A stretch of DNA of 64,000 bases. Source: an uncultured Chloroflexia bacterium (GTDB taxonomy: Bacteria; Chloroflexota; Limnocylindria; Limnocylindrales; CSP1-4). A program made the position numbers and the translations under genes. The notes below the pieces were generated by a model that saw only the letters and a program-made list of their open reading frames with translations, searched no databases and was not told the origin of the DNA. The DNA lies in the NCBI GenBank assembly GCA_963778955.1, contig CAVZWI010000001.1:147980-211979 (forward strand), written 5' to 3'. Below, one piece after another: positions 27,837 to 62,572 of this stretch (positions are counted from its first letter, which is position 1; every line of letters starts with the position of its first letter).

Positions 27837-28202
27837 CTACCGCAGGATGGCGACGACGGCGCTGACCACCAGCACCGCGATCACGGCGATGGCAAGTCCG
27901 ACCGAGCGGCGGTCACCCACGCTCGAATACTCCCACGCCGTCACGACCAGCCCGAGGAGCGGTGTCACCACCACCACGTAGACGCCCAGCGTCGCCCACG
28001 CCCACGGCGTGAACGCCAGCAGCCCATCGAAGACCGCGGTGATGTCGGTCATGCTGCCGCGTCCCGGCTCCGAGCCGGCGATCTCGAACGCCACGGCCAC
28101 CACGAAACAGGCTGCGGCCAGAAGCGCTCCGCCGCTCAGAGCAGCACTGGTGTAGCGACGCGGCGCGTGTCCTGCCGGATGTCCGGTCGGATGTCCGGTC
28201 AT
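27837..28202 (-). CDS. DUF1634-like small membrane protein
   Basis: 121 aa from ATG 28202, with two or three hydrophobic helices. It overlaps the stop of the upstream TauE gene by 4 nt. This pairing with TauE/SafE genes is common. Confidence 0.65.
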   Translation of the reverse strand: MTGHPTGHPAGHAPRRYTSAALSGGALLAAACFVVAVAFEIAGSEPGRGSMTDITAVFDGLLAFTPWAWATLGVYVVVVTPLLGLVVTAWEYSSVGDRRSVGLAIAVIAVLVVSAVVAILR

Positions 28203-29026
28203 GTGCCCAGGAACTCCGCGAACATGCTCACGGCGAACACCGCAGCCACGACCACGAAGGCCATCCGCAACACGTTCTGCGACAGCTGCATCGACAGGCG
28301 GGCACCCAGGCGGGCACCGACGATGACGCCCAGCGCTACCGGTGCCGCCAGCAGCGGATCCACCCGGCCTGAGACGGTGTAGACCGTGGCGCTGGCGGCC
28401 GCCGTGGCTGCCAACATGTAGGTGCTGGTGGTGGTCGCGACGCGGATGGGCACGTGCATGAGCACGTTCAGGGTGGGTACGTTGATGACACCACCGCCAA
28501 CGCCCAGCAAGCCACTGATGTTGCCGGACACGAAGGAGACCACGGTCCCGGGCACGATTCGCCGCGCCTGGTATTCGATCTCCTCGCCGCTGGTGGGCTC
28601 GACGTACGATGAGGCGAAGCCCGAACGATCGGCGTCGCCATCGACGGGAGGGTGGACGACCGGGTGGCGGACCTGCCACAGCATGCGCAAGGCCACGCCC
28701 GACAGGAGCAGCGCGAACAGCAGCGACAGGGTGCGACCATCCAGCCGTCCCGCGGTCAAGCCGCCGGCCAGGCCACCAAGCGCTGCGGCCACCAGCAACA
28801 ACAACCCCAGGCGGCGATCGGCGATGCCGCTGTGGATGTACCGGGGGCTGGCAGACAGGGACGTGGCGATGACACCGATGAGGCTGGCAGCGATGGCCGT
28901 CTTGAGGTCATAGCCAAGACCCACGCTGAGGACAGGCACGATGACGAGGCCCCCGCCGATCCCGACCAGGGAGCCGAAGCCACCCGCAGCGACGGACACG
29001 AGGAAAGCGAGGAGCGCTGCGCTCAC
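28199..29026 (-). CDS. sulfite exporter TauE/SafE family permease
   Basis: 275-aa polytopic membrane ORF with repeated G-rich helices (GGFGSLVGIGGGLVIVP, GLLGVGGGVINVP). Confidence 0.85.
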   Translation of the reverse strand: MSAALLAFLVSVAAGGFGSLVGIGGGLVIVPVLSVGLGYDLKTAIAASLIGVIATSLSASPRYIHSGIADRRLGLLLLVAAALGGLAGGLTAGRLDGRTLSLLFALLLSGVALRMLWQVRHPVVHPPVDGDADRSGFASSYVEPTSGEEIEYQARRIVPGTVVSFVSGNISGLLGVGGGVINVPTLNVLMHVPIRVATTTSTYMLAATAAASATVYTVSGRVDPLLAAPVALGVIVGARLGARLSMQLSQNVLRMAFVVVAAVFAVSMFAEFLGT

Positions 29027-29102
29027 GCTCGATCGCTCGCGGTCGCCTCGCTCGTTCCGACTGGTTGCACGCCATTCAGGATAGCCGGGCTACCATCAGG
29101 CC

Positions 29103-30299
29103 ATGACGATGTTCGCTGATCTCGAGCCCCGCGCACCGGACGCCATCCTGGGACTGATGGAGCGCTTCCGCGCTGACGACCGACCCGACAAGGTTTCGCT
29201 TGCCTCGGGCGTGTATGTCGATGAGACTGGCACGACCCCGGTGCTCGACACCGTTCGCGAGGCCGAGGCACGCATCCTGGCAGCTCAGACGACCAAGGTC
29301 TACAAGCCCATCGGTGGCGATCCTGCCTACATCGGGCCGGTGCGTGACCTGGTCTTTGGCGCCGACCATGCGGCCGTGATGGGCGGCCGAGTCGAGACCA
29401 TCCACACGCCCGGTGGCACCGGCGCCCTGCGCGTGGCGGGCGACCTGGTGGCCGCCATCGCACCCGGCGCCGCGGTGTGGCTCTCCACGCCGACCTGGCC
29501 CAACCATCCGCAGGTCTTCGAGGCCGCCGGCCTGCCCATCCGCAGCTACCCGTATCTCGGCGCGGACGGCGAGTTGGACGTCGAGACCATGCTCAGCGTG
29601 CTGCACGCCGTCCCCGCCGGAGACGTGGTGGTGCTGCACGGCTGCTGCCACAATCCCACCGGCATCGATCCGCAGCCTGCGCAGTGGGCGCGCATCGCCG
29701 ATACGCTCGCTGAGGCCGGCGCCTTGCCGCTGCTGGACTTCGCCTACCAGGGCTTCGCCGATGGCCTGGCCGAGGATGCGCGCGGCCTGATGACGCTGCT
29801 GGCACGCGAGCGCACGATGCTGGTGGCGAGCAGCTTCAGCAAGAACTTTGCGCTCTACGACGAGCGTGTGGGTGCCTTGAGCATCGTCGGGGCAGATGCG
29901 GCCGAGACCGCCACCTTGCTCTCGCACGCCAAGTCCGCGGTGCGAGCCAACTACTCCAACCCACCCGCCCACGGTGGAGAGATCGTGGCCACGGTGCTGG
30001 CCGATGAGGAGTTGCGCGCCCGCTGGATCGACGAGGTCGGCATGATGCGCGACCGCATCAACGGCAATCGGGCCAGGTTCGTGGCGGGGCTCGGGGCGGC
30101 CGCTGCGCCGGGCGACCATGAGGCGCTGCTGCGCCAGCGGGGCATGTTCTCACTGCTGCCGCTGGGGGAGGAGCGGGTGGCCAGGCTACGCGACGAGTTC
30201 GCTGTCTACGTGGTGGGCAAGGGCCGGGTCAACGTGGCCGGCATCACCGAGGCCAACCTGGAGCCGGTCTGCCGTGCCATCGCAGCGGTGACTGCCTGA
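29103..30299 (+). CDS. aromatic/aspartate aminotransferase (class I, AspC/TyrB type)
   Basis: DKVSLASGVYVDETG, GGTGALR, HNPTG and SFSKNFALYDERVG (PLP lysine). Confidence 0.9.
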   Translation: MTMFADLEPRAPDAILGLMERFRADDRPDKVSLASGVYVDETGTTPVLDTVREAEARILAAQTTKVYKPIGGDPAYIGPVRDLVFGADHAAVMGGRVETIHTPGGTGALRVAGDLVAAIAPGAAVWLSTPTWPNHPQVFEAAGLPIRSYPYLGADGELDVETMLSVLHAVPAGDVVVLHGCCHNPTGIDPQPAQWARIADTLAEAGALPLLDFAYQGFADGLAEDARGLMTLLARERTMLVASSFSKNFALYDERVGALSIVGADAAETATLLSHAKSAVRANYSNPPAHGGEIVATVLADEELRARWIDEVGMMRDRINGNRARFVAGLGAAAAPGDHEALLRQRGMFSLLPLGEERVARLRDEFAVYVVGKGRVNVAGITEANLEPVCRAIAAVTA

Positions 30300-30520
30300 G
30301 GACCAACGGTGGCCGCTGGTACTGGTGCCGCGATGCCTACAGGCCAAAGGTACGGGGTGGTCTGATGCGGTTGATGGAGGTACCCTCCAGACCCTGATGG
30401 GTCGATAGTACGGGCATGAACGTTGCCATCTCTCCCACCCCCGGTACGTCCGTCAGGTACCCGCCGAAGCCAGGCACCCGCCCGGCGCCGGCGCCCCAAG
30501 CGAGGCCTGCGAAACGAAGC

Positions 30521-31207
30521 ATGATCGCGACATTCGCTAGTATCAGCAACCGAATGCGACTCAGTTTCTTCTCCCGAGACTCCGGCCAGGAGCCCGCGCC
30601 GTCGAGCGCGACCCCATCCATCTCGGATGCGGTGAGGCCGCCTACCGGCAAGACCTTCCCGGCCGATGAAGTCGTCTGGGGCATCGTCATCCGCAACGGC
30701 TTCGATGAGCTGGACGATCCCTGGTATCACCGCGGGACCACACAACACGCCTACCTCGAAGGCAATGACAACGTCGCTATCTGCGGCTTCCGGCCCCCAC
30801 AGTCGGGTCCGCGAACGCGACGCCGTTCGCGCCTGGGTCTGCCCAGCGCGGGCGAGCACCCCATGTGCGGCATCTGTGCACGCATGGTGGTGGCACCGCG
30901 GCCGCGCGTGCCGGTGCCGGTCCAGGGTAGCCGCCCGCCGGTCCCCGTCCCCGTCGCTCGACCAGCACCCAGACCGCTCCAGCCGGCCCCGGTCGCCCAA
31001 CCGGTCCCTATCGCCCATGCGGGCCCCGGGCCGCAGATGGCTCCCATGCCGGTCCCGCCCAACGTGGCCGCGCCTACCTCGCCCTGGGTCCGCCAACGTT
31101 CCGGCGTCGAACCCCAGCCGCCCGGCCCTATGGCCGTCGAGCTCGGGACGCACCACGAGACCGGCCTTAGCGATCGCGGAGTCCGAACGGAGCGCAGCGA
31201 AGACTGA
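30521..31207 (+). CDS. hypothetical protein with Pro-rich C-terminus
   Basis: Only the middle part looks protein-like (FPADEVVWGIVIRNGFDELDDPWYHRGTTQHAYLEGNDNVAICGF...HPMCGICARMV). Start chosen at ATG 30521. No family recognised. Confidence 0.35.
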   Translation: MIATFASISNRMRLSFFSRDSGQEPAPSSATPSISDAVRPPTGKTFPADEVVWGIVIRNGFDELDDPWYHRGTTQHAYLEGNDNVAICGFRPPQSGPRTRRRSRLGLPSAGEHPMCGICARMVVAPRPRVPVPVQGSRPPVPVPVARPAPRPLQPAPVAQPVPIAHAGPGPQMAPMPVPPNVAAPTSPWVRQRSGVEPQPPGPMAVELGTHHETGLSDRGVRTERSED

Positions 31208-31285
31208 TACGCCGGCACCGCCGGCCGAGCATGGGAGAGGCCGCCCGACATCGAGGAGGTGTCGGGCGGTTGCTCGTTCTTGTCG

Positions 31286-32293
31286 CTACTCCGTCGGCTT
31301 GACGATGATCTTCAGGCCGTTGCGCGCGACCAGGTCGTCGAAGGCCTTGGCGGCCTCGCTCAGCGGGTAGGTGGCCGTGATCATGCCGTCGAGCGGCACG
31401 GTGCCGTGGTCCACCATCTCGATGGCGCGCAGCATGTGCGTCGCCTTCATGCGCCGCGACCAGGCCAGCGTGAGGCCCTTGCCGCGCGCCAGCTTGGCAG
31501 GGAACGAATGGCTGTTGGTGGGTGGGATGCCGACCACGACCACGCGGCCGCCCAGCTTGGCGGTGATGAGGGCCGACACGAGCGCGGCATCCTCGCCGGC
31601 GGCCTCGAAGCCCACGTCCACCTTGGGCACCGCGTCGATACCCTCCGGCTGGCCCTCGACCGTGGTCAGATAGGCTTCGTCGGCACCGGATGCCAGTGCC
31701 GCCTCCACGCGATGTGACTTGGCGTCGGTGGCGATGATGCGGCCCGCACCCATGGCCTTAAGGGCACGGATGATGAGCAGGCCGATGGGGCCGGCCCCGA
31801 AGACGCCGGCACTCATGCCGGGCTTGAAGTGACCCAGGTCGATGGCGTGAAGCCCGACACCGAGTGGCTCGAGCAGTGCGATGTCGTCGCCCTTGATGGT
31901 GTCAGGCGCCGGCAGCAGCAGGCGCTGCGGCCAGTTCATCAGCGAGCGCAGGCCCCCGTGGATGGGCGCGTGGCCGCAGAACTTGACGTCCAGGCAGAGG
32001 TTGGCGTTGCCGGCGCGACAGACGTCGCAATGGCCACAGGGGTTGGCCGGCTCCACGATGACGCGCTCACCCTCGCGGGGGCCGCCCATGATCACGCCGC
32101 CCATCTCGTGGCCCAGCACCAACGGCTCGACGACGACCGATTTGCCGATGCCGCCGTCCTCGTACCAATGGAGGTCGGAGCCACAGAGGCCGACGGCGGT
32201 GATGCGGACCAGCTCTTCGCCGGGGGCGACGAGCGGCTCTGGTTCCTGGTGGATACGAACGTCTTTGGCGCCGTGTAGGCGAAGCACTTCCAT
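31286..32293 (-). CDS. zinc-dependent MDR alcohol/polyol dehydrogenase
   Basis: ITAVGLCGSDLHWYEDG, GHEMGG, CGHCDVCRAG and GVFGAGPIG. ATG at 32293. Confidence 0.88.
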   Translation of the reverse strand: MEVLRLHGAKDVRIHQEPEPLVAPGEELVRITAVGLCGSDLHWYEDGGIGKSVVVEPLVLGHEMGGVIMGGPREGERVIVEPANPCGHCDVCRAGNANLCLDVKFCGHAPIHGGLRSLMNWPQRLLLPAPDTIKGDDIALLEPLGVGLHAIDLGHFKPGMSAGVFGAGPIGLLIIRALKAMGAGRIIATDAKSHRVEAALASGADEAYLTTVEGQPEGIDAVPKVDVGFEAAGEDAALVSALITAKLGGRVVVVGIPPTNSHSFPAKLARGKGLTLAWSRRMKATHMLRAIEMVDHGTVPLDGMITATYPLSEAAKAFDDLVARNGLKIIVKPTE

Positions 32294-32529
32294 GCCGCCA
32301 ACGATAGCGCGCCGGGCGGTCCTCGCCTCGGGCGGTTCGGCACTTCGACAGCGGCGCATCGGCACCGTGCAGAGCAGCTCGATAGCCCTCGGTCGAAGGC
32401 AGCAGAAACAACTCGGTGGTGCGTTCGGTCAACTGTCGACTTGGTCCGGTCGCGTATGCTTCAGAGGTGGCCGATGGTGCGTGCCGTGCGCGCTTTCGGA
32501 CCACATCTTCGAGGAGCATCTATCGCCTG

Positions 32530-33192
32530 ATGGCCGCTGAGCATGTGCACGTGCCCGCGCACGCTTCGGACTGGGTGACGCCGACTGCCGCACCGCCCGA
32601 ATGGGCCTCGGTCAGCGTGTCCGCGAAAGCGCGCACGCCCGTCGACGAGGGCCTCATCAAGGTCGTCTCCGGGATGACGCCGGGCAAGGCGCTCGACCTC
32701 GGTTGTGGTGAAGGCCAGAACAGCATCTGGCTGGCGCAGCGGGGCTGGATCGTGAACGCCGTGGACATCTCGTCGAGCGCCATCGCCGAGGCTCGCGAGA
32801 TGGCGGCGGCGGCCGGGGTCGATCGCACCGTCGTGTTCAAGGTCGCCGACATCGGCGAATGGGGGCCGCTGTCTCGCTACGACCTCGTCTTTTGCACCTT
32901 CGCCCTGCCGGCGCGCGGCATGGGACGTAGTCGCATGCTGGAGACCGCCGCCAGAGCCGTGGCATCGGGCGGCACCATCCTGCTGAGTGACTTCGACACC
33001 TCGTTGCGCCGCGAGGGCTGGATGGCGGAGAAGTACCTGGTATCGCTCGAGGAGCTGGAGCGCCACCTGGATGGCTTCCGTATCGATCGCTCCAGCGTGT
33101 CGGTCGCACGGCATCGCCACGGCTACGAGGAGCGGCTGCTGCCGGTCGCCAGCGTCGTCGCCACCCGCCGCACGGACCTGCGAACCTTCTAG
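32530..33192 (+). CDS. class I SAM-dependent methyltransferase
   Basis: Motif I ALDLGCGEGQNSIWLA, then VNAVDIS and YDLVFCTF. ATG at 32530. Confidence 0.8.
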   Translation: MAAEHVHVPAHASDWVTPTAAPPEWASVSVSAKARTPVDEGLIKVVSGMTPGKALDLGCGEGQNSIWLAQRGWIVNAVDISSSAIAEAREMAAAAGVDRTVVFKVADIGEWGPLSRYDLVFCTFALPARGMGRSRMLETAARAVASGGTILLSDFDTSLRREGWMAEKYLVSLEELERHLDGFRIDRSSVSVARHRHGYEERLLPVASVVATRRTDLRTF

Positions 33193-33213
33193 CCCCGCGC
33201 CTATGCTCTGGCG

Positions 33214-34601
33214 GTGACGCTGACCGACCATCCCATCCTGGCGCAGTTGCGCGAGGCGCTGCCAGGGATGCGCGTGCTGAGCCAGCCTGCAGATGTAGAG
33301 CCGTTCCGCCGCGACGAGACCGAGTTCGTGCCCGACGGAGCGCCGATCGCCGTGGCCTTCCCCACCAGCACGGACGAGGTGGCCACGATCGTGCGGCATT
33401 GCGCGCACCACCGGGTAGCGGTCGTGGCCCGGGGTGGCGGTAGCGGGCTCACCGGTGGTGCCAACGCGGTCGAGGGTTGCATCGTATTGGTCACCACAGC
33501 CATGGACCGCATCGTCGAGATCGACGCCGACAACCTGCTCGTGGTCACCCAGCCGGGTGTCCTCACGGCCGACCTGGAGAAGGCGGTCGAAGCGCAGGGC
33601 CTCTTCTATCCGCCCGACCCCGCCTCGCATGAGATCAGCTGCATCGGCGGCAACATCGCCGAGAACGCCGGCGGCTTTCGCTGCGTCAAGTACGGCGTCA
33701 CGCGCGACTGGGTGATGGGCCTAGAGGTCGTCCTCGCTGACGGCGACGTCATCCGAACCGGCGGCCGCAATGTCAAGGACGTCATGGGCTACGACCTGAC
33801 GCGCCTCTTCGTGGGCTCCGAGGGCACGCTGGGCATCATCACCGAGGCCACACTTCGGCTGCGTCCCATGCCGTCGCCAAAGACGACCTTGCTGGCCTTC
33901 TTCCCCACTGTCCGGCACGCCGGGGACGCCGTCTCCCGCATCACCCGTGCCGGGCTCGTGCCGGCCACGCTCGAACTGCTCGACCGCCACGTCATCGCCG
34001 CCGTGGAGGCTGCGCTGGCGCTGGGCCTCGACACCGACGCCGGGGCGATGCTGATGATCGAATCGGATGCCGGCGGCGCGCTGGCTGAGGCCGAGCTGGA
34101 CGTCGCCTCGTCGGCATGCCAGTCAGCCGGCTCCACCACCCAGACCCGCGCCGCCGACACCGCCGAGGCTGACGCGCTGCGCCAGGCTCGCCGTCGTGCC
34201 CACTGGTCGATGGAGCAGGTGGGCCTGGCACGCTCCGAGGACATCAGCGTGCCGCGCAGCCGTATCGCCGACCTGATGGAGGCCATCGCCCGCGTGTCGG
34301 CGCGGCATGACATGGAGATCGGCGTACTCGGCCATGCCGGTGACGGCAACTTCCACCCCACCTACGTCACCGGCCACGATGCTCCCCGCGTCGAAGAGCG
34401 CACCGATGCCGTCCGGGCCGACCTCTATGCCGAGGTCCTGGCACTCGGCGGTAGCATCGCCGGTGAGCACGGCACGGGTCTGTCCAAGCGCGACTTCCTC
34501 GAGCTACAGGTCGGGGCCCGCAGTCTTGCCGCCATGCGCGCCATCAAGTCGGCGCTCGATCCCGACGGCATCCTGAACCCCGGCAAGATCTTCCCGACTG
34601 A
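33214..34601 (+). CDS. FAD-linked oxidase (GlcD / D-lactate dehydrogenase family), 3' end uncertain
   Basis: VVARGGGSGLTGGA, GGNIAENAGG, GHAGDGNFHP, GEHGTGLSKR and LNPGKIF. Homologues end just after NPGKIF, but the ORF runs to 35139 through the convergent gene. A TGA at 34599-34601 becomes in-frame with a 1-nt correction near GATC 34587-34590. Confidence 0.8.
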
Positions 34602-34610
34602 CGGTTCCAA

Positions 34611-34634
34611 GCGGACTTCCGAAGAATCGTCCGC
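34611..34634. terminator. hairpin between convergent genes
   Basis: GCGGAC (34611-34616) pairs with GTCCGC (34629-34634), with an inner TTC/GAA pairing. It sits between the inferred GlcD stop and the stop of the minus-strand gene at 34635. Confidence 0.4.
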
Positions 34635-35983
34635 CTACGGCGTAAGGCTCCAGAGCTCGCGACCGTGCTCGCCATCGCTGGCGCTGAAGAGGAGTACCCC
34701 GCCGAGCTTCACCAGCTCCCGCGGGAACGACGAGCCCGACGGATCGATGTCCGCAGCCTCGACCGTTCCCGCGGTGGTCCCATCGCTCATCCAGAGCTCG
34801 TGGTCGAGCAGCCTCCAGTCCGTGCCATCGTCCTCGCCCGGACCGGCGGCGAACCAGAGCCGGCCGTCCAGCCCAACGCACCTCAGCGTGACCGCGGAGG
34901 TGAACCAGTCGGCCGTGCCGCCCTTGACGAGTTCCGTTCCGGCAGCGGTCGCGTCACTGACCCAGAGCTCGTCGCGAGAGGGCAGTGACCGCGAGGAACG
35001 TGTCATCCACAATCGGCCGAGGTGCTTCTGCATGCCGGGCAACGGACGGACGCGAGGCACGACCGCGCCGGTGCCCGACTTGGTGCCGCCGCTCCCGAAG
35101 AGCCGGAGCCGGATGCTGTCGGTCCAGCCGTTGAAATAGATGTCGTCACCAAGCACGGCGAACTCCCCGGTGGCGAAGATGCCGCTCACGGGCCTGGTGC
35201 CGGCTCGGCTGCCGTCGGACCACCACAGACGAGGCGGCTCCAGGCAGCCGTCGCCACCACCGCACCAGTCCGGCCCATGGTGCGCGCCGCCGACGAAGAA
35301 GATGCGCCCGCGGAACGGCGTCAAACCGCTGCTGTTCAGCCACCGGGGAGAGATGCGCTTGGTGCCGGTGCTCGTGGCATCGGTCACCCAGAGTGCGCCA
35401 CCAGCGTTGAAATACAAGCGTGATCGCATGACGGCCGACCCGACCAGGTCGATGTCCGGGATGGCACGCACCAGCTGCGTGGACTTGCCCGTTCCGTCCG
35501 TGCGCCACAGGTCCTCGTAGCGGCGACTGAAGTAGGCCCGGCTGCCGAGCGCGGCGATCTGGAGATCGCCGGAGCCCTTGCTGCCCGGCGCCAGGTCCCG
35601 CACCAGGCGGGTGCCCTTGCGCGTGCCGTCGCTGATCCACAGTTCGCGGCCGTGGCTGCCATCGTCGGCACTGAAGTACAGCCGATCCCGACACGCGTCA
35701 GGGAGCGCGGCGCAGAGCCACCAGAGCCGGGGCGGATGTCGCGGACCAGGCGGGTGCCAACGGGAGTGCCGTCAGTGGCCCACAGCTCTCGGCCGTTGGT
35801 GCCATCGGTGGCGCTGAAGAACACCGTCTTGCCGACGACGGTGAGCGACTCCGGCCCGGATCCCGACCAAGGATGGATGTCAGCGACGAGCGTGGCAGAC
35901 GGAGCTGCGGCCACGCCGACTGGAGGGATGAGCAGGACCGCGGCGATGACGATCACGACGGCCCAGGTGACGACGGCGCGCAT
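34635..35983 (-). CDS. ELWxxDGT-repeat exported protein (frame break at 35684-35689)
   Basis: Signal peptide MRAVVTWAVVIVIAAVLLIPPVGVAAA. Repeats: RELWATDGTPVGT, (RELWISDGTRKGT across the break), DLWRTDGTGKST, ELWVSDATAAGT and ELWMSDGTTAGT. ORFs 35384..36214 and 34635..35603 join if one G is added at GGGATCGG. Confidence 0.8.
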
Positions 35984-36114
35984 GGCCAATGTCTCCCGAT
36001 GGGTCCCGCGTTGACCCGGGATAGGGCTGCCATCGCGCAGGACCCAGCAGTCTGACGTTACGCCCACCACCTTCGGCATCAAGGTGCCGAAGGTCACCTC
36101 GATGGACAGATGGT

Positions 36115-37019
36115 TCAGTCGCCCTCGGAGCCGTCGAGTCGAGCGAGGATCTGGAGTGAAAGGCGAGCGGCCTCGACCGGGTCCGAGCCGAGCACCTGGC
36201 GGTAGTAGTCCCACGATTCGAACTCCACGGTCAGGTAGCCCTCGTAGCCGATGTCGTCGAGCGCTGCGAAGAAGTCCGCCCAGGGTACGACCCCCTCCCC
36301 CAGCAGCGGGAAGACGAACGTGTCGCCGAACATGCCCGGTCGGCCGACCGCGTCCTTGAGGTGGACGTGGCGGATGCGGGAGCCGAGTTGGCGGATGACC
36401 CAGGGGATGTCATTGCCGACGAGCACGCCGTGCGATGGGTCGAGATTGATACCGAGCGCCGGTGAGTCGTAGTGGCGCAGCAGCTCCAGCGTGGTGTAGT
36501 AGTCGTGGACGAGGTGGCCGAAGACGCCTTCGACGGCCAACTGCACGCCGGCGTCCTGCGCCACCGGCACGAGTCGGTCGAAGGCGTGCACGCACCATGC
36601 CCCACGCCGCTCCCTCGCGGAGGTCCCTGCCGAGCCCAGGTGCCAGATGGGTCCCACGGGGCCGGGCCGGTGAAGAGATTGACCGGCGCGACGATCGACT
36701 GCCCGCTCATGTCCAGCTCGGCCACGGCTCGGATCGCGGCGATGGCGAGGTCGATGCGCTGGTCGCGCACAGCGTCGTCGGGATGCACGAAGTCGAGCTG
36801 CACGATCCATTCACTCACCGCCAACCCGGCAGCCTGCGTGTCGGCCAGCAGCGCGCGGCGATCGGCATCGGTCCGATGGTCGGGGTCGATGCGGGCGAAC
36901 GGCCAGGAGACCGCAGCATAGCCCAGGCCGGCGAGCGAATCGGCCACCTCCGCGGCAGGTCGATCGACGAAGTCGAGTGCCGCGAGGAACCCATGTAAGC
37001 GCCCGTTTCGCGGGCTCAC
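36115..37019 (-). CDS. sugar phosphate isomerase/epimerase (xylose isomerase-like TIM barrel), disrupted
   Basis: The N-terminal half is in ORF 36231..37187 (from GTG 37019, a GTGA overlap with the upstream gene). The C-terminal half is in ORF 36115..36810 (AFDRLVPVAQDAGVQLAVEG...HVHLKD...GYLTVEFE). The junction around 36590-36650 probably needs two corrections. Confidence 0.7.
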
Positions 37020-38035
37020 GCGTGGTCGGCCAGGACGATCCGTTGACCCCGCTCGGCCGATACATACGCGGCACGGATGATGCGCAGTGCCAAGCGGGCG
37101 TCGTGTGGCGTGACCAGGAAGGGCCGGTCGTGTGCGATGGCATCGAGCGCATGGGCCAAGCCTCGCCTTACTGACCAGGGCCACCACTCGGGGTCGTGTT
37201 CCACGTGCTGGGGGACCAGTTCGTGATCGTCCCAGACCGCCATCGGGTCGCTGTCTTCGAGGCGCACGTGGATGGCGCCCGTCTCACCCCAGATGGAGCG
37301 CGTCTCGCTCCAGGGCTGACCGCCCGACGCGTACCCGACCAGCAGCGAGACCAGGAGGTGCGGGTACTCGAGGATGAGCGCTGCGGTGTCGTCGGCCTTG
37401 TCCGGCGACTCGATGACGAGACGAGCGAGGTGACACTGGAGCGCTGTCGGCACGCCGAACCAGTGGAGCGCGAGATCGACGAGGTGCGTGCCGCTGTCGG
37501 CGAGAGCACCTCCGCCGGCGCGATCCCAGGTGCCCTTCCAGTGACCCGGCAGGCCCATGCGTGGGCGCTCGTCGCCCGCGACGGTCAGGGTCGCCAGCGA
37601 GATGCGGTCGATGAAGCCGTCGTCCAGCAGATCGCTGGTGCGCTGGTGGCAGGGCAGGAAGCGCTGATTGAGGGCGACGTAGAAGCGCCGGCCGGCATCC
37701 TCCGCGGCGGCGATCATCTCATCGGCTTCGGCGAGCGTGTTGGCGATGGGCTTATCGAGGATGACGTGCTTGCCGGCCGCCAGGGCTTCGAGCACGACCG
37801 GGTGGTGGAGGTCGTGCGGGAGGCAGATGTCGATGACATCGATGCCGGGGTCATCGAGCAGGGCGCGGTAGTCGGCCACGGCGCGCGCGATGTCGTAGTC
37901 GCGGCTGATGCGCTCGAGCTGGTGAGGGTCGCTGTCGGCGACCGAGACGCGGTCGACATCATGGTGGGACAGCATCTCCTCGACATGGACGGTCCCGGCG
38001 ACCCCGCCGCCGATGACCCCGACATACAGTCCCAT
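37016..38035 (-). CDS. Gfo/Idh/MocA family oxidoreductase
   Basis: MGLYVGVIGGGVAGTVH Rossmann N-terminus, ICLPHDLH and EKP-like DKPIA. ATG 38035 preceded by AGGAGG. Confidence 0.88.
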   Translation of the reverse strand: MGLYVGVIGGGVAGTVHVEEMLSHHDVDRVSVADSDPHQLERISRDYDIARAVADYRALLDDPGIDVIDICLPHDLHHPVVLEALAAGKHVILDKPIANTLAEADEMIAAAEDAGRRFYVALNQRFLPCHQRTSDLLDDGFIDRISLATLTVAGDERPRMGLPGHWKGTWDRAGGGALADSGTHLVDLALHWFGVPTALQCHLARLVIESPDKADDTAALILEYPHLLVSLLVGYASGGQPWSETRSIWGETGAIHVRLEDSDPMAVWDDHELVPQHVEHDPEWWPWSVRRGLAHALDAIAHDRPFLVTPHDARLALRIIRAAYVSAERGQRIVLADHA

Positions 38036-38247
38036 CCTGGCCCTCCTGCGCCTCCGAGCGTTCGCCACCAGCGTACGCCTCCGGTGCTGCCATGTGAGCG
38101 CCGGGATGCCGTGCTCAGGGGAGAGCGCTGGCGACGCTGGATGCTCGCGCACGAGCCACCTACGATCGTGTCGTTGTGGCCGTTCGGTTCCGGGGCAGAC
38201 GCGTACTCCTCGACCCGTCATCCTGACCCGCTAGAATGACGCCCGAG

Positions 38248-38445
38248 GCCGACATAGCTCAGTGGTAGAGCACTTCACAAGGTCTGTGAAGTGAACGAGA
38301 AACTTCACAGGAGGAACGGGTTCCAGGATGAAACTCCACGCTCAGGAAGGGCGACAAGTCGCCACTCGGGACGATCGGGACCTCAACGAGGCAGAGCTTG
38401 TTCGTAAACAGCAGGTCCTCGGTTCAAATCCGAGTGTCGGCTCCA
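38248..38445 (+). tRNA. tRNA-Thr(CGU)-like gene interrupted by about 123 nt (possible intervening sequence or inactivated gene)
   Basis: 5' half at 38248-38272: GCCGACA TA GCTC AGTGGTA GAGC A. 3' half at 38401-38445: TTCGTAA ACAGC AGGTC CTCGG TTCAAAT CCGAG TGTCGGC T CCA. The acceptor strands pair 7/7 and the T arm is canonical. The only candidate 5' anticodon-stem strand, GCTTG (38396-38400), pairs at 3 of 5 positions. Confidence 0.55.
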
Positions 38446-38458
38446 CTTCCCAAGCGCT

Positions 38459-38722
38459 AAGGGCGAGAACGCGGGCACCCTCGTGCTCGATGGCTCCAGT
38501 TCCATCCGCGGCAACACCGCGGGCACCGGTGGCGGTCTGGTCAACCTCGGGTCCGCCACCCTCGTCATGCACGACTCCAGCTCCATCCAAGGCAACACCG
38601 CGACATATAGAGGTGGTGGTGGGGTCTGGAACCACGCCGGCATCCTCGACGGTGTCGTCTGCGACGGAACGGACGCCAACGTCTACGACAACACGCCCGA
38701 CAACTGCGGTAGCGAGTCCTAG
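38459..38722 (+). pseudogene. C-terminal fragment of a beta-helix (GNTA/GGG repeat) surface protein
   Basis: The frame reads GENAGTLVLDGSSSIRGNTAGTGGGLVNLGSATLVMHDSSSIQGNTATYRGGGGVWN...NVYDNTPDNCGSES followed by a stop. It begins directly after the tRNA CCA, with no N-terminal part and no start context. Confidence 0.5.
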
Positions 38723-39073
38723 GGCGGAGGTCGCTGGTCTGTGGTCGGGCGTTCGCGCCGCGCGCGTCGCGGGTCACGGGTCGAGTACGAGGCAACCCGC
38801 AGGCAGCCAGCATGGGTGGGCGGACACGATGCGTGCCACCCTCGCAGTCGTGATGGATGCTCATGGTCGCTGGAGTGCGGGGCGCGCCGTGGTCGATGAC
38901 GCCCGACGTGCTGGTTGAGATCAGACGCGTTGACCCGGGCTACCCACATGGCGGCGAGCGGCGAGCTGAGCATGGGAGGGCCGTCCCGCTGACCCACGGA
39001 GGTGAAAGGGCATGCTCGGCGACGTGCCGGCCGGCATCGGCAAGCAGCTTTCGCAGTAGCCTCGCGAGCCGCT

Positions 39074-41655
39074 ATGGTGGAGCCCGTGCTTCTGGAACGG
39101 GACGCAGAACTGGATGTCCTGGAAGGGCTCGTCGCCGGCCTCGATCCGAGCGGCGGCAAGGTCGTGCTCATCCGCGGCGAGGCCGGCATCGGCAAGAGTG
39201 CCCTCGTCGCCCGCTTCGCCGAGCTTCGATCCCGCGAGGCGCACGTTCTCATCGGTGCCTGTGACGACCTGTTCATCCCGCAGCCGCTGGGGCCGTTCTG
39301 GGACATCGCTCGCGCGGAAGCGCGGCTGAGAGGACCACTCGAGATCGGTGATCGCCCACATTTGCTCGAGGCCGTGCTGAGCCTCCTGTCACATCCCACG
39401 CGTCCAACCATCCTGGTCATCGAGGACACACACTGGGCCGACGAGGCCACGCTCGACGCCATCCGATACATCGGCCGGACGATCGCCCGGACCAACGGCA
39501 TCCTGCTCCTCACGTACCGCGACGGTGACGTCGACGACGATCACCCACTGCGCGGGGTGATCGGTGACATCCCGGCCGGGGATGTCGTCCGCATCCAGCT
39601 CCACGGTCTCTCGATGGACGCGGTGACGTCGATGGTGGCTGACTCGGGCCTGGATCCGGCCGCGGTCCTGGCTGCCACGCGTGGCAATCCCTTCCTGGTG
39701 ACCGAGATGGCCTCTGGGCCAAGCGACGGTGTCGCTTCCTCACTGGAGGAATCGGTGATGGCGAGGGTGCACAAGCTCTCGGTCGGGGCGCGACAGACGC
39801 TCGATGCCCTCGCCGTCATCCCGGAGGCCATACCGCAGCGCGACGCGTTGTCGCTGGCCGGGGTGGATGAGAGCCGCTTGCGCGAGTGCGAGCAGCGTGG
39901 GCTGCTGGAGTCACGTGCCGGGATGGTGGCGTTCCGCCACGAGCTCATCCGCCAGACGATCGAGTCGGCGATGACCGCCGGCGAGCAGGTGGCCCGGCAC
40001 CGTGCGGTGCTCGATCAACTCTCAGACGAGACCCACTCGAGCCTGCTCATCCACTGCGCCGTCGAGGTCGATGACATCGACCGTCTCCTCGAGCTCGCGC
40101 CACGGTCCGCTCGCTATGCTGCGGCCACTGGTAGTCACATCCAGGCAGTCGAGGACTTCAGAGAGGTAGGACCGTACCTCGACCGCTTCGGCCCGGAGGC
40201 CCTGGGGCCGTTGCTCGACGACTGGGCACGCGAGGAGGACCTCGTGGACGACGCTGCCGAGGCCATCCGCCTCAATGCGCTGGCCCGAGATCGACTACCG
40301 AGCGCTGGGAGACCGCAGCTCGGAGTCGCGCGCCCTCACCAAGGCGGCGCAGTACTACGAGAACCACGGGCAACGCGACCAGGCAGTGGAACTCGCCCGT
40401 GAAGCCCTTGATGTGCTCGGCGCAGACCCTGATGGCTCGGACCTGGCCCGAGCCCTCGAGGCCAACGTGTATCTGCAGATGATGGCCGGCAAGGTCTCTG
40501 CGGTAACCGAGCTGGTCCAGCGGACGATCGATGCCGGTGGAACGAACCTCGACGAAAAGGTACCTCATCCGGATCCTTTGCCACCGTGGGACCATGGCCA
40601 ATGTCACCAGCTACCCTGAGGGACGAGCCAGTCTCGACGAGGCTAGAGCGCGCGCGGAGGCTGCCGGGGAATGGTTCGAGGAGTGTCGCGCGTCGGTCAA
40701 TCACGCCTGGGCAGCCGCGGAGTTCCGGGATTTCCCAGTCGCGTCCGACTACGCGCAGCGCGCCATCGCTTCAGCCGCACGACACGCACTCTTGGGTATC
40801 GAGGCCTACGCCAAGGCGATACATGCGAGGGTCCTGGACTTCGAAGGCAGGTGGGACGACGCCACCGACCTGGCGCGAGATCTATCCGAGGCTGGCGCAA
40901 TGGCCCAGATGGTCGTCCTCCCCATCCTCGGGGTGATCGAGGCAAGAAGAGGCCGAACGTCCGCCCCGACGGTGTTGGCACAGGCCTGGCAGATGGCCTC
41001 TGCCACCCATGAATTCCAGCGGCTGGCCCCAGCGGCCTCGGCGAGCGCCGAACACGCCTGGATCTTGGGGAGTGGCGGTATCACCGTCGCTGAGCTCACG
41101 GGCGTGATGAACGCCGGCCTTGACCAGGGTTTCGAGTGGTCGCCTGGGTCGATCGCCTTCTGGCTCTGGGAACTCGGGGAGTTGTCAGTGCCCCCTGAGG
41201 GCATCGCTGAACCATATCGGCTGACGATCGAGGGCCGGACCGACGAAGCAGCGGCCATCTGGGAAGCACGGGGGCTCCCCTACGAGCGTGCGCTGGCGCT
41301 CATGCACGGTAGTCTGGCCGATCAGCTAGAGGCGCTCGAGGCATTCGAGACGCTCGGCGCGTCCGCGGTGGCGGCCAGGTTCAGGAAGAGGTTGCGGGAG
41401 CAGGGCGTAGCCGTTCCGCGCGGCAAGGGTCGCGAGACGAGGCGACACATCGCCGGGCTGACCGCACGACAGGCAGAGGTCCTGCGACTCCTGGATGAGG
41501 GTCTCTCCAACACCGAGATCGCCGACCGGCTCTTCGTCTCGCTTCGCACGGTCGAGAGCCATGTCTCCGCGGTGCTCGACAAGCTGGATGTCTCCACTCG
41601 GGAGGAAGCCGTGTCCCGGGCGCGCACCGAGGGGCTCCTGGGGGCTGCCAGCTAG
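39074..41655 (+). CDS. LAL-type (large ATP-binding LuxR family) transcriptional regulator, read in three frames
   Basis: Walker A IRGEAGIGKSAL. A TPR-like middle region. C-terminal LuxR HTH LTARQAEVLRLLDEGLSNTEIADRLFVSLRTVESHV. ORFs 39002..40402, 40275..40619 and 40531..41655 form one protein with +1 corrections near 40280-40292 and 40555-40558. Confidence 0.8.
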
Positions 41656-42569: not shown

Positions 42570-42939
42570 CGTCGTGTGGCACACAAGGTGTCAAACAGGC
42601 TGTGTGAGAAGACCTTGACCGGGGTGCCGCGAGAACGGCCAGAACCTCGTCACCTCGGCGATGTGCAACGCTTTTCATGGCAGGGCCACGAGCCGGGCAA
42701 GACCACCTCAGCGGCCCGCGGTCGGTCGTTGCATCGTGACCGCACCCGCGAGGCACTACTATGGACGCTTGGGATTCCGAGGAGATGCCAGCGCGCCTCG
42801 AGCGCGAGCGCCCGGCCTGCACCGCCCCGATCCGAGACGAGTGCAGGCGCAGGGCCCCCGCAGCCATGAACGCGCGCTGGACCCGAGCCGCTGAAGGGTC
42901 GGCGTCGCGCAGGCGAGCCTGCCTCACGAGGGGCCACGG

Positions 42940-43846
42940 ATGAGCGACGACCAAATCCACAGCTCCGCTCAGCGGGACCGCCGCTCGCTCGCCCTCGTCT
43001 TCGGTATCGGCGTGGTCGTCCTGCTCGTGGAGTTGGTCGGCGGATTGGCGGCCGACAGCCTGGCACTCCTGGCCGACGCCGGCCATGTGTTCACGGACGT
43101 GGCGGGAATCGCCCTCGCCCTCGGAGCCATCTGGCTGGCGGGACGACCAGCCTCCCATGCGCGCACCTTCGGCTGGTACCGGGCCGAGATCCTGGCCGCC
43201 GCCATCAACGCCGTCATCCTGCTGGCGATCGCGGCCTTCATCCTGTGGCAGGCATGGCAACGCTGGAATGAGCCGCCCGAGGTCGCCGGCGGTCTCATGC
43301 TCGCGGTGGCGGTCGTGGGCGGTGTGGCCAATCTCATCGCCATGCTGCTCCTGCGTGGCCCACAGGGCCGCAGCCTCAACATGCGGGGCGCCTACCTTGA
43401 GGTCCTCGGCGACCTGCTGGGCTCCGTGGCGGTCGTGGTGGCCGCGATCGTCATCACCCTCACCGGATTCACGCAGGCTGACGCCATCGCCTCGGCGGTC
43501 ATCGGGCTGATCGATCCTGCCGCGCACCTGGGGGCTCCTGCGCGACGCGGTCGATGTCCTGCTGGAAGCCACCCCCAAGGACGTGGATGTCGAAGAGGTG
43601 CGTCGCCACATCCTCGAGGCACCTGGCGTGGAGGACGTTCATGACCTCCACGCCTGGACGATCACCAGCGGCATGAACATCGTCTCCGCGCACGTCGTGC
43701 TGGGCCCTGATGGCGACCCCGGTGGCCTGCTCGACCATCTCAGCGATTGCCTATCGGGGGACTTCGACATCGACCACTCCACCTTCCAGTTGGAGACCCC
43801 CGAACACGTGCTCTGGGAGGGTCGAGCCGACCGCATACGGCTATGA
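42940..43846 (+). CDS. cation diffusion facilitator (CzcD/ZitB-type) metal exporter, one extra nt at 43509-43516
   Basis: LLADAGHVFTDVAG, FGWYRAEIL and the C-terminal domain DVHDLHAWTITSG...HSTFQLE. ORFs 42940..43644 and 43583..43846 join as ...VIGLI-ILPRTWGLLRDAVDVLLEATP. Confidence 0.85.
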
Positions 43847-50219: not shown

Positions 50220-50746
50220 GGGGCACCCTGCTGTGTTGGCCGGACGAGCATGCGTCCGTCACACGGCCACGACATCGGTGCCAGCGCCCGATCCCCATGC
50301 CCGCTAGCGGCACAACGCGATCTCCCGCTGGCTGGAATGCGGACAGGGGCCCGCAGGTGGCATCCTCGAGCCATGCGCGTCCTGATCGTCGATGACAGTC
50401 CCGGTTTCCTCGACGCCGCCAGTCAGCTACTCCGACTGGAGGGTGTGGCGGTCGTCGGTGTCGCTTCGAGCGGGGAGGAAGCGCTCCACCTGGCCAGCGA
50501 ACTCCGTCCGGACGTCACGCTCATCGACATCGACCTCGGCGGCGATGACGGCATCGCCGTGGCACGCCGCCTAGCCGGGTCGGAGGGTCATCCCGCCGGA
50601 GACATCGTCCTCATCTCCACCCATGCCGAGGACGAGTTCGCGGAGCTCATCGAGGCCAGCCCTGCGATCGGGTTCATCCCCAAGCTGGCCCTCACCGCGG
50701 AGGCCATCGAGCGACTCGCTGGTCGGAAACCTCCCGAGGGGCGGTC
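50220..50746 (+). repeat. inverted repeat copy A (527 bp)
   Basis: Reverse complement of 54048-54574 with 2 mismatches by my base-by-base comparison (G/C at about 50243; T/C in AAGCTGGCC versus AAGCCGGCC). Confidence 0.95.
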
Positions 50747-54040: not shown

Positions 54041-54421
54041 TTACCCGGACCGCCCCTCGGGAGGTTTCCGACCAGCGAGTCGCTCGATGGCCTCCGCGGT
54101 GAGGGCCGGCTTGGGGATGAACCCGATCGCAGGGCTGGCCTCGATGAGCTCCGCGAACTCGTCCTCGGCATGGGTGGAGATGAGGACGATGTCTCCGGCG
54201 GGATGACCCTCCGACCCGGCTAGGCGGCGTGCCACGGCGATGCCGTCATCGCCGCCGAGGTCGATGTCGATGAGCGTGACGTCCGGACGGAGTTCGCTGG
54301 CCAGGTGGAGCGCTTCCTCCCCGCTCGAAGCGACACCGACGACCGCCACACCCTCCAGTCGGAGTAGCTGACTGGCGGCGTCGAGGAAACCGGGACTGTC
54401 ATCGACGATCAGGACGCGCAT
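54041..54421 (-). CDS. receiver-only response regulator (copy B)
   Basis: Identical to copy A except for one residue (L to P). The C-terminal tail differs after PPEGRS, where the repeat ends. It lies directly upstream of the NarL-type regulator on the same strand. Confidence 0.8.
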   Translation of the reverse strand: MRVLIVDDSPGFLDAASQLLRLEGVAVVGVASSGEEALHLASELRPDVTLIDIDLGGDDGIAVARRLAGSEGHPAGDIVLISTHAEDEFAELIEASPAIGFIPKPALTAEAIERLAGRKPPEGRSG

Positions 54422-54574
54422 GGCTCGAGGATGCCACCTGCGGGCCCCTGTCCGCATTCCAGCCAGCGGGAGATCGCGTTGTGCCGCTAGCGGGCATGGG
54501 GATCGGGCGCTGGCACCGATGTCGTGGCCGTGTGACGGACGCATGCTCGTCGGGCCAACACAGCAGGGTGCCCC
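54048..54574 (-). repeat. inverted repeat copy B (527 bp)
   Basis: See copy A. It includes 153 bp upstream of the receiver ATG. Confidence 0.95.
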
Positions 54575-61536: not shown

Positions 61537-61689
61537 GCTCTACGAGCGGCGAGTCTGCGGCCAGGGCGGGAGACTCGAGACTGGCAGGAGGCGGAGCGCA
61601 AGAACCAGCAGGAGGAGACCGCGGCCAAGCCCGCATCTGACCCCAGCGAAGACGATCCATGTCCTGATCAGGAGGCGGTACCGAACGAC

Positions 61690-62572
61690 ATGACCGAAGG
61701 AGACAGAATGCCGATCCGATCCGATGACTTCCGCGTCCACCCCGGACTCACGGTCGACCTTGAAACGTGGCCCACAAAAGTAGAACCCGCCTACGCGTCG
61801 AAGAAGCGGTATCGGAAGCTCCTGCGGTCCCACGTCGAGGCGCTCAGTTCGCTGCAGCACCTGCACTACGCGTCCAACCGCTACGCGCTCTTGCTGATCT
61901 TCCAGGGTATGGACGCCGCCGGCAAGGACGGCGCCATCCGGCATGTCATGTCGGGCGTGAACCCGCAGGGCTGCGAGGTCTCGAGCTTCAAGCAGCCCAC
62001 CCCTGACGAGCTCGAGCACGACTTCCTCTGGCGCACTGAGCGTCGGCTGCCCGAACGGGGGCGGATTCGGCATATTCAATCGTTCCTACTATGAGGACGT
62101 GCTGGTCGTTCGCGTACACCCGGAGCTGCTCGAAGGTCAACGGCTTCCCGCCGGGTTGATCGACCCGAAGACCATCTGGCAGGACCGTTATCGGTCCATC
62201 TTGGACCTCGAGGCACACCTCCACCGGAACGGCACCCGCATCATCAAGGTGTTCCTGCACCTCTCGAAGGACGAGCAGCGCCAGCGTTTCCTGGCACGCA
62301 TCGATGAGCCCGACAAGAACTGGAAGTTCAGCCTGGCGGACGCCCGCGAGCGGAAGTACTGGAAGCAGTACAGCGAGGCGTACGAGGAGTGCCTGAGCGC
62401 GACCAATACGCGTCACGCACCCTGGTACGTGGTCCCGGCCGATGACAAGAAGAACGCGCGGCTCATCGTCTCCCAGATCGTCCTTGACGCGTTCAGTGAG
62501 CTCAACATGGCGTATCCCAAGGTCACCCCGCGCCGACGGAAGGAACTAGAGGCCATCGGCAAGGCGCTCTGA
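61690..62572 (+). CDS. ppk2: polyphosphate kinase 2 (one extra nt at 62064-62068)
   Basis: [11 protein letters not shown]. ...RLPERGRI then [21 protein letters not shown] continues in the +1 frame (ORF 62099..62572). Later motifs are [11 protein letters not shown] and [10 protein letters not shown]. Confidence 0.88.

Follow-up and report, generated by a model that had tools for sequence, protein, structure and literature searches.

Group I introns in bacterial tRNA genes lie in the anticodon loop and are about 200 nt long or more. The locus described here resembles such introns, for example that of cyanobacterial tRNA-Leu(UAA), in that other sequence is found between recognisable 5' and 3' parts of a tRNA, but the break is between nt 25 and 26, the inserted sequence is too short, there is no match to the group I model RF00028, removal of the insert does not restore the tRNA, and the insert is not conserved. 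In tmRNA, including the two-piece forms, an acceptor stem and a T arm enclose a long segment, as they do at our locus, where an SD-like AGGAGG and an ATG are also found inside that segment. Unlike tmRNA, the locus has a full D arm and an anticodon loop, it has no tag reading frame with a stop, and neither ARAGORN nor Rfam calls it as a tmRNA.

Genomic islands regenerate their target tRNA gene and leave a displaced fragment of it behind (PMC4383910). The window (the whole 64-kb stretch of DNA that was analysed) contains a tRNA 3' half that agrees with the displaced att fragments of tyrosine-integrase islands and prophages: it extends from the anticodon loop through CCA into the trailer, copies in relatives and in a candidate viral attP next to an integrase have the same boundary, and the gene order breaks at the tRNA. 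It differs from them in that the partner copy is not intact and consists of nt 1-25 only, that the window holds neither an integrase nor an element body, and that the two pieces are just 123-128 nt apart. There is also a likeness to CIME-like or decayed islets that lack an integrase, which are short foreign stretches with tRNA-derived repeats and no recombinase (1.4-1.8 kb in two of the relatives, L007 and L008). Compared to these the remnant in the window is far smaller, one of its att copies would have been deleted, and no site-specific excision is possible.

The locus is a tRNA pseudogene that is real as a sequence feature, and it is an ordinary genomic scar and not a new kind of intervening sequence. 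We consider it likely that it is a tRNA-Thr(CGU) gene at the attachment site of a tyrosine integrase, inactivated by the formation of a short array and a subsequent deletion of about 50 bp. The features of the locus are the following, where L002-L008 are related loci and L001 is a contig from a conspecific strain:

37016-38035, - strand: Gfo/Idh/MocA oxidoreductase gene, the left anchor of the shared gene order (Pfam PF01408, PF22725, PF02894)
38210-38237, + strand: promoter-like site TCGACC-16 nt-TAGAAT, upstream of the tRNA remnant (consensus scan)
38248-38272, + strand: tRNA-Thr(CGU) nt 1-25, chromosomal 5' remnant (identical to L002-L007; L001 has the same upstream flank)
38271-38309, no strand: ACTTCACA motif in three copies, as a 9-bp palindrome CACTTCACA-AGGTC-TGTGAAGTG and a third, direct copy (repeat search)
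38273-38395, + strand: intervening DNA, 123 nt, G+C 56% (composition, excision test, anchored alignment)
38396-38400, + strand: GCTTG, in the place of GCTGT, the 5' strand of the anticodon stem, of which it is a degenerate version (interpreted as the arm on the element side, beside the crossover)
38401-38445, + strand: tRNA-Thr(CGU) nt 31-75, interpreted as a 3' fragment that was displaced (att core, attR-like; the relatives' tRNA has the identical sequence)
38446-38456, + strand: tRNA trailer CTTCCCAAGCG, common to the relatives, the likeness to whose trailers stops at 38456
38457-38722, + strand: ORF fragment of a beta-helix-like repeat protein, abutting the trailer (from the translation; called as a 79-aa ORF at 38483-38722)

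The 5' piece (38248-38272, + strand, GCCGACATAGCTCAGTGGTAGAGCA) contains the acceptor 5' strand, the D arm and nt 25, and can be parsed as GCCGACA-TA-GCTC-AGTGGTA-GAGC-A. The 3' piece (38401-38445, + strand, TTCGTAAACAGCAGGTCCTCGGTTCAAATCCGAGTGTCGGCTCCA) runs from the anticodon loop with its CGT through CCA and is parsed as TTCGTAA-ACAGC-AGGTC-CTCGG-TTCAAAT-CCGAG-TGTCGGC-T-CCA, that is, anticodon loop, 3' stem strand, variable loop AGGTC, T arm, acceptor 3' strand and CCA. Between the two acceptor strands 7 bp form without a mismatch, and the pieces match their respective parts of the relatives' intact tRNA-Thr(CGU), nt 1-25 and nt 31-75, at 100%, so they are not chance likenesses. What the locus lacks of the 75-nt tRNA is nt 26-30 (GCTGT). 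Each piece is found once in the 64-kb window, with no second copy even at three mismatches, and short-word BLAST finds no further tRNA fragment there. ARAGORN with default settings gives zero tRNAs across the whole window. Rfam has no match for the locus at gathering score, and at E<=10 there is no tRNA, intron, ribozyme or tmRNA in 38100-38600, just two weak matches to unrelated small RNAs downstream. The intact orthologue in L002, used as a positive control, scores 74.2 bits on RF00005. The tRNA models (ARAGORN and Rfam) thus fail here while seven orthologues are intact, as is the case for a tRNA pseudogene.

The spacer is 128 nt long between the perfect pieces, or 123 nt if GCTTG (38396-38400) is taken to be part of the stem. 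With 56% as a whole, and 48% over its first 60 nt, it is poorer in G+C than the flanks, which have 68%. In the place where all seven relatives have GCTGT, GCTTG can form 3/5 pairs with ACAGC, and AGAGC is found at 38267-38271 and again at 38393-38397. A 9-bp hairpin (CACTTCACA/TGTGAAGTG) is located at 38271-38293, the third ACTTCACA at 38302-38309 adjoins AGGAGG (38309-38314), and a GGCGAC/GTCGCC hairpin is present at 38350-38363. No other copies of ACTTCACA exist in the 64-kb window, and three copies are reached by 2/100 shuffles. To judge from their sequence, these repeats and the other small palindromes may be protein-binding sites, the ACTTCACA repeats either of the integrase arm type or an operator. 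The sequence-only reading had already described a tRNA-Thr(CGU)-like gene in two parts, a spacer of about 123 nt with low G+C that is lowest early on, the 9-bp hairpin with an extra ACTTCACA by AGGAGG, small GC hairpins, the 3/5 pairing of GCTTG and the AGAGC at both junctions, and all of this was recovered here.

Related loci were fetched with the oxidoreductase as query and with one genome per species. This gave seven orthologous loci (L002-L008) from uncultured Chloroflexia MAGs, with an amino-acid identity of 64-92% for the oxidoreductase, and in 7/7 of them an uninterrupted 75-nt tRNA-Thr(CGU) (GCCGACATAGCTCAGTGGTAGAGCAGCTGTTTCGTAAACAGCAGGTCCTCGGTTCAAATCCGAGTGTCGGCTCCA) is located upstream of the oxidoreductase gene. 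It is identical across six of the relatives and has one D-loop change in L008. The Logan contig L001 (run ERR11571143) encodes an identical oxidoreductase and is 99.2% identical to the window over 2352 nt, of which the last 539 nt are identical. It reads ...GGTAGAGCAGCTGT where the window has ...GGTAGAGCACTTCA, and so continues with the correct anticodon-stem strand GCTGT, and it stops exactly at tRNA nt 30. This end is presumably an assembly-graph branch at k=31, as the tRNA is common to several species. The GCTGT at the break point indicates that a conspecific strain carries the intact allele and that the event in the window is recent. The insert is absent from the seven relatives and from the conspecific strain.

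It is very improbable that the junction at 38272/38273 was made during assembly or polishing of the long-read metagenome and is present in no cell. In favour of such an artefact, the window has single-base indels and split ORFs in comparison to L001, every window protein that was looked up is on one large contig (1.75 Mb) with only the oxidoreductase additionally on L001, and the tRNA is identical across co-occurring species; the frameshifts relative to L001 and the fact that the junction is seen in the assembly only also count against the scar model. The junction is on the other hand outside any repeat able to mislead an assembler, and a loss of 50 nt or a gain of 123 nt is unlike an error of the homopolymer type. 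The spacer does not, to our knowledge, resemble the adapters or barcode flanks of nanopore sequencing, and the junction is unlike a typical assembly error.

The headline of the sequence-only reading, a new kind of small intervening element, had to be given up: the gene is uninterrupted in the relatives and in the conspecific strain, no excision restores the tRNA, and no RNA family matches. The break comes after nt 25, at the boundary between D stem and anticodon stem, and is thus outside the anticodon loop. When all contiguous deletions of the 198-nt stretch were made exhaustively, none gave the tRNA of the relatives; the best one, of 123 nt, leaves GCTTG for GCTGT and differs at nt 29-30, which breaks two loop-adjacent pairs of a stem that is invariant in seven species. 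A group I intron was rejected, as neither RF00028 nor any other intron family matches at E<=10 in 38100-38600 and the insert is 123-128 nt long. With regard to an archaeal-type (bulge-helix-bulge) tRNA intron, general folding was used, and neither the MFE nor the centroid fold brings the two junctions together in a helix. All that ARAGORN offers in its intron mode is a tRNA-Glu(ctc), a contrived model in which the intron has 102 nt and the variable arm 26 nt, and it was rejected. A tmRNA was rejected as well, since the ARAGORN tmRNA search is empty at a relaxed threshold and there is no Rfam tmRNA. The internal ORF of the 198-nt stretch has no stop for 196 codons and extends beyond the RNA, and this 196-aa ORF, which passes through the spacer with its SD and ATG, was dismissed as a gene: it belongs to no Pfam family, and its frame is not that of the coding signal downstream.

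That the interrupted tRNA functions, with 123-128 nt removed from the transcript, where D arm and anticodon stem meet, by some novel bacterial activity or with the 198-nt RNA itself being tRNA-like, is so improbable that it can nearly be disregarded, and the same applies to a tRNA-like regulatory RNA in which the internal segment carries protein- or ribosome-binding sites. A functional interrupted tRNA would agree with the conservation of the promoter-like site, with the intact acceptor, D and T elements and the encoded CCA, and with the folding of the 198-nt RNA, which is better than that of shuffles (z = -2.6); also, the sequence with 123 nt deleted is still a tRNA-Thr(cgt) to ARAGORN. It is contradicted by the position of the break at nt 25/26 and not in the anticodon loop, by the two mismatches that are left after the best excision in an otherwise invariant stem, by the lack of an intron, ribozyme or tmRNA family at E<=10 together with the empty ARAGORN tmRNA search, by the missing insert in seven relatives and the conspecific strain, and by the contrived tRNA-Glu with its 26-nt variable arm as the sole ARAGORN intron model. 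The promoter-like site was the 1 site found in a consensus scan where 0.1 was expected. The motif CCCGCTAGAATG is also found in front of the intact tRNA of L002-L004, while L005-L007 have variants of it, and the CTAGAAT portion of the site is conserved in the relatives. From its sequence and position the site would drive the tRNA remnant, and a 198-nt transcript that is unable to mature into a canonical tRNA is plausible.

Copies that consist of the 3' half only are found in L002 (2180-2230), L007 (7965-8020), L008 (5697-5743) and the viral contig L098. In the three relatives they are in direct orientation to the intact tRNA, from which they are separated by 7.4 kb in L002, 1.8 kb in L007 and 1.4 kb in L008. 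In all four copies the identity to the tRNA sets in at nt 30-33, where the anticodon loop has its 5' edge, and it continues through CCA into the trailer. The 3' piece of the window has the same boundary as those in L002, L007, L008 and L098, with identity from nt 31, the first base of the anticodon loop, to nt 86, and query nt 31-86 (3' piece and trailer) are matched at 100%. It is a partial copy from the canonical sublocation through the 3' end, and the shared gene order also breaks at the tRNA: in tblastx against L002-L008, window positions 28000-38035 are collinear, this order ends at the tRNA, and there are no collinear matches beyond 38446. An intact, regenerated tRNA partner is found in L002, L007 and L008, whereas the window has nt 1-25 only, and no homologue of the L098 integrase is found in the window and no integrase among its ORFs.

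The contig L098, a free or proviral element, encodes a tyrosine integrase of 395 aa (PF00589, 69 bits) whose end is about 30 nt away from the 3'-half copy, a layout that is usual for an attP beside its integrase. The shared boundary of the 3' halves, this layout and the break in gene order make 38401-38456 look like a displaced att fragment, and the tRNA like an integration hot spot. The option of an insertion-inactivated tRNA or a recombination scar, which had also been put forward from the sequence, gains support from these att-boundary copies, the intact orthologues and the gene-order break. The candidate attP with its integrase covers L098 5056-6322 (IMG/VR UViG_3300045968_000086), with GGCAACAGA-type repeats in both arms, and the relatives of the integrase in viral contigs are L098 itself and one weak match of 45 residues at 44% identity in L101.

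Between the tRNA and the 3'-half direct repeat, L007 (8020-9792) and L008 (5743-7130) have a stretch of 1.4-1.8 kb with one Fic gene (403-430 aa, HPFxDGNGRxGR) and without an integrase. Decayed arrays therefore exist at the tRNA-Thr site. This minimal att-flanked Fic islet is common to two species. In L002, ARAGORN calls an 84-nt "tRNA-Pro(cgg)" at 2186-2269 that is the displaced tRNA-Thr 3' half together with unrelated sequence, and shows that att fragments yield false tRNA calls.

Both ends of the spacer resemble parts of the tRNA region. The first ~25 nt are like the 3' trailer of tRNA-Thr(CGU), and in an alignment with the junction as anchor the left end, CTTCACAAGGTCTGTGAAGTG..., matches both the trailer of the window itself, CTTCCCAAGCG..., and the trailers of the relatives' copies. 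In the anchored alignment to 12 trailers, 0/300 shuffles reach the score, be it for the own trailer, for L008b or for the sum over 12, in a test that was chosen after the repeat had been noticed. A free local alignment of the spacer with the right flank is not significant, as 73/500 and 82/1000 shuffles reach the observed score. The anchored test is what speaks, well but not conclusively, for homology between the spacer start and the trailer. At the other end the last ~8 nt, GGCAGAGC, resemble tRNA nt 17-24, and GGCAGAGC-TTG is an imperfect copy of nt 17-30 that abuts the perfect nt 31-75. Identity to the tRNA starts only at 38401, with the two bases before it mismatched and the next 56 nt perfect, and such a sharp switch from diverged to perfect at the putative crossover has the look of an attR junction. 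The two pieces are probably not halves of a single gene parted by an insert, and the trailer-like start of the spacer suggests that the 5' piece most likely lost its own 3' partner by deletion.

Our model is that tyrosine-integrase elements in this Chloroflexia clade would recombine at the anticodon loop of tRNA-Thr(CGU) and bring their own copy of nt 31-75, which would regenerate the gene, while the chromosomal 3' half would end up displaced at the far end of the element. The stretch 38401-38456 may be such a displaced fragment, and GCTTG with the preceding GGCAGAGC may be the element's imperfect likeness of the tRNA next to the crossover. What is left of the inserted DNA could then be the 123-nt spacer, whose start once was the trailer behind the CCA of the regenerated tRNA. 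The earlier layout would have been an intact tRNA, a remnant of ~123 nt starting with the trailer, and the displaced 3' half, that is, a very small version of the Fic islets in L007 and L008. A deletion of ~50 bp, from the CA of GAGCA (nt 24-25) to the CA of CCA (nt 74-75), could thereafter have taken nt 26-75, which would have joined nt 25 directly to the trailer and inactivated the gene. The pseudogene may still be transcribed from the conserved promoter, without a normal tRNA product. The observations that the model builds on are the intact orthologues and allele, the shared boundary of the 3' halves, the attP with its integrase, the trailer-like start and the lack of a clean excision; the order and number of the events are what we infer.

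Some observations go against the scar model. The 64-kb window has no integrase and no second copy of a tRNA piece, at least two events are needed after integration, unless the short array was already old, and the source of the 123 nt was found nowhere among the sequences searched. The spacer has no copy elsewhere in the window or in 100 fetched loci (BLAST), and it is unmatched in phage, plasmid and viral collections. When 38230-38470 is compared by BLAST to phages and plasmids the 3' half of tRNA-Thr matches and the insert does not, and exact scans of viral contigs for the hairpin, both junctions, an internal 23-mer and the join of CCA and spacer give no matches. A metagenome scan with CACTTCACAN5TGTGAAGTG gave 16 matches among those listed, all of them unrelated chance palindromes. 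As no source has turned up in these searches, the 123 nt can only putatively be ascribed to an element.

A sub-variant of the scar model is its main alternative. A complete element would have integrated at the anticodon loop, and a single illegitimate deletion would have extended from nt 26 to 128 nt before attR, which we find unlikely. On this alternative the P arm of the element would end in the 128 nt of the spacer, with the ACTTCACA repeats as arm-type integrase sites, which is unlikely to the same degree. It shares the att-boundary evidence, and just one event is needed after integration. The CA microhomology at the junction fits the palindrome that reaches into C24-A25 of the tRNA. The repeats are ~90-130 nt from the core, a position at which a lambda-type attP has its arm sites. 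The trailer-like start of the spacer is however left unexplained, and no P arm homologous to the spacer is found in L098 or in the attR copies of the relatives. The outcome is in either case a pseudogene.

To the right of the trailer, the ORF fragment at 38457-38722 has probably lost its 5' end. The small protein that it encodes combines a GGGxxN / SSIxGNTA repeat with a DANVYDNTPDNC motif at the C terminus and belongs to no Pfam family. The only protein identical to the 79-aa ORF, P0001, is on the source contig, while P0002 (35% identity) and P0003 (52% identity) are longer and have the C-terminal motif in common with it. The homologues of the 38457-38722 protein are solely proteins of 124-136 aa from Limnocylindrales-type MAGs. 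The truncated ORF points to a second, older breakpoint at ~38456/38457. The 79-aa and 196-aa ORFs, and a downstream one of 199 aa, are not on record in other samples. The LuxR/AAA_16 gene has no relative with more than 67% identity, and the context of that relative is unrelated. The first 8 kb to the right of the tRNA have no close relatives, and the shared order resumes at the xylose-ABC operon, at ~46.5 kb.

A rearrangement, or an integration at a 5' sublocation, could also be thought of here. The 5' fragment 38248-38272 would then be the displaced one, with the right side coming from a large island or an inversion, and this is improbable; it is no more probable that the rest of the tRNA, or a regenerated copy, is located outside the window. 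The G+C of the right side is slightly lower (~0.665 vs 0.69), gene order is not shared with relatives for ~8 kb, integration at a D-loop sublocation has been reported in the literature, and the loss of a tRNA that reads 43% of the Thr codons would be avoided. Within 25.5 kb downstream there is however no copy of nt 1-25 or of GCTGT..., and from 46.5 kb the gene order matches an ordinary xylose-ABC and two-component region of a relative, with no tRNA nearby. There is also no integrase to be seen in the window, and a 3' fragment only 128 nt away would be left without explanation.

The scar model has to account for the loss of a cognate tRNA, as ACG makes up 43% of the Thr codons in the 11 confident genes of the window. 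Such a loss should be costly unless another copy exists. One of three things should hold: a second tRNA-Thr(CGU) is present elsewhere, ACG is read by tRNA-Thr(UGU) with some loss, or few cells of the population have the allele. Should the allele be real and a second gene be lacking, 43% of the strain's Thr codons would be without their cognate tRNA, which would be of some small interest for wobble decoding. A displaced att fragment beside a truncated tRNA gene can mimic a tRNA that contains an intron, and scans for introns should filter for it. The tRNA-Thr(CGU) gene looks like an integration hot spot in an uncultured, Limnocylindria-like clade of Chloroflexia, and beyond annotation the significance of the locus is slight.

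Several genes in the window are split into overlapping ORFs in different frames, at 34635-36214 (an ELWxxDG-repeat protein), 36115-37187 (sugar-phosphate isomerase-like), 39002-41655 (an AAA_16/LuxR regulator), 42895-43846 (a cation-diffusion transporter) and 61537-62572 (PPK2-like). The isomerase-like gene is one ORF in L001, from which the window differs by three single-base indels, and this suggests that the split ORFs are long-read indel errors and not real decay. A perfect inverted repeat of 527 nt, at 50220-50746 and 54048-54574, duplicates a response-regulator gene, and its copies bracket 3.3 kb in which a histidine kinase and a response regulator of the LuxR type are encoded. The segment may be invertible, the duplication may be recent, or the assembly may be at fault. 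At 2213-2313 there is a tandem array with a 9-nt unit, TCGGCCGTG, in ~11.7 copies with 69% matches, and it also has a 26-nt period.
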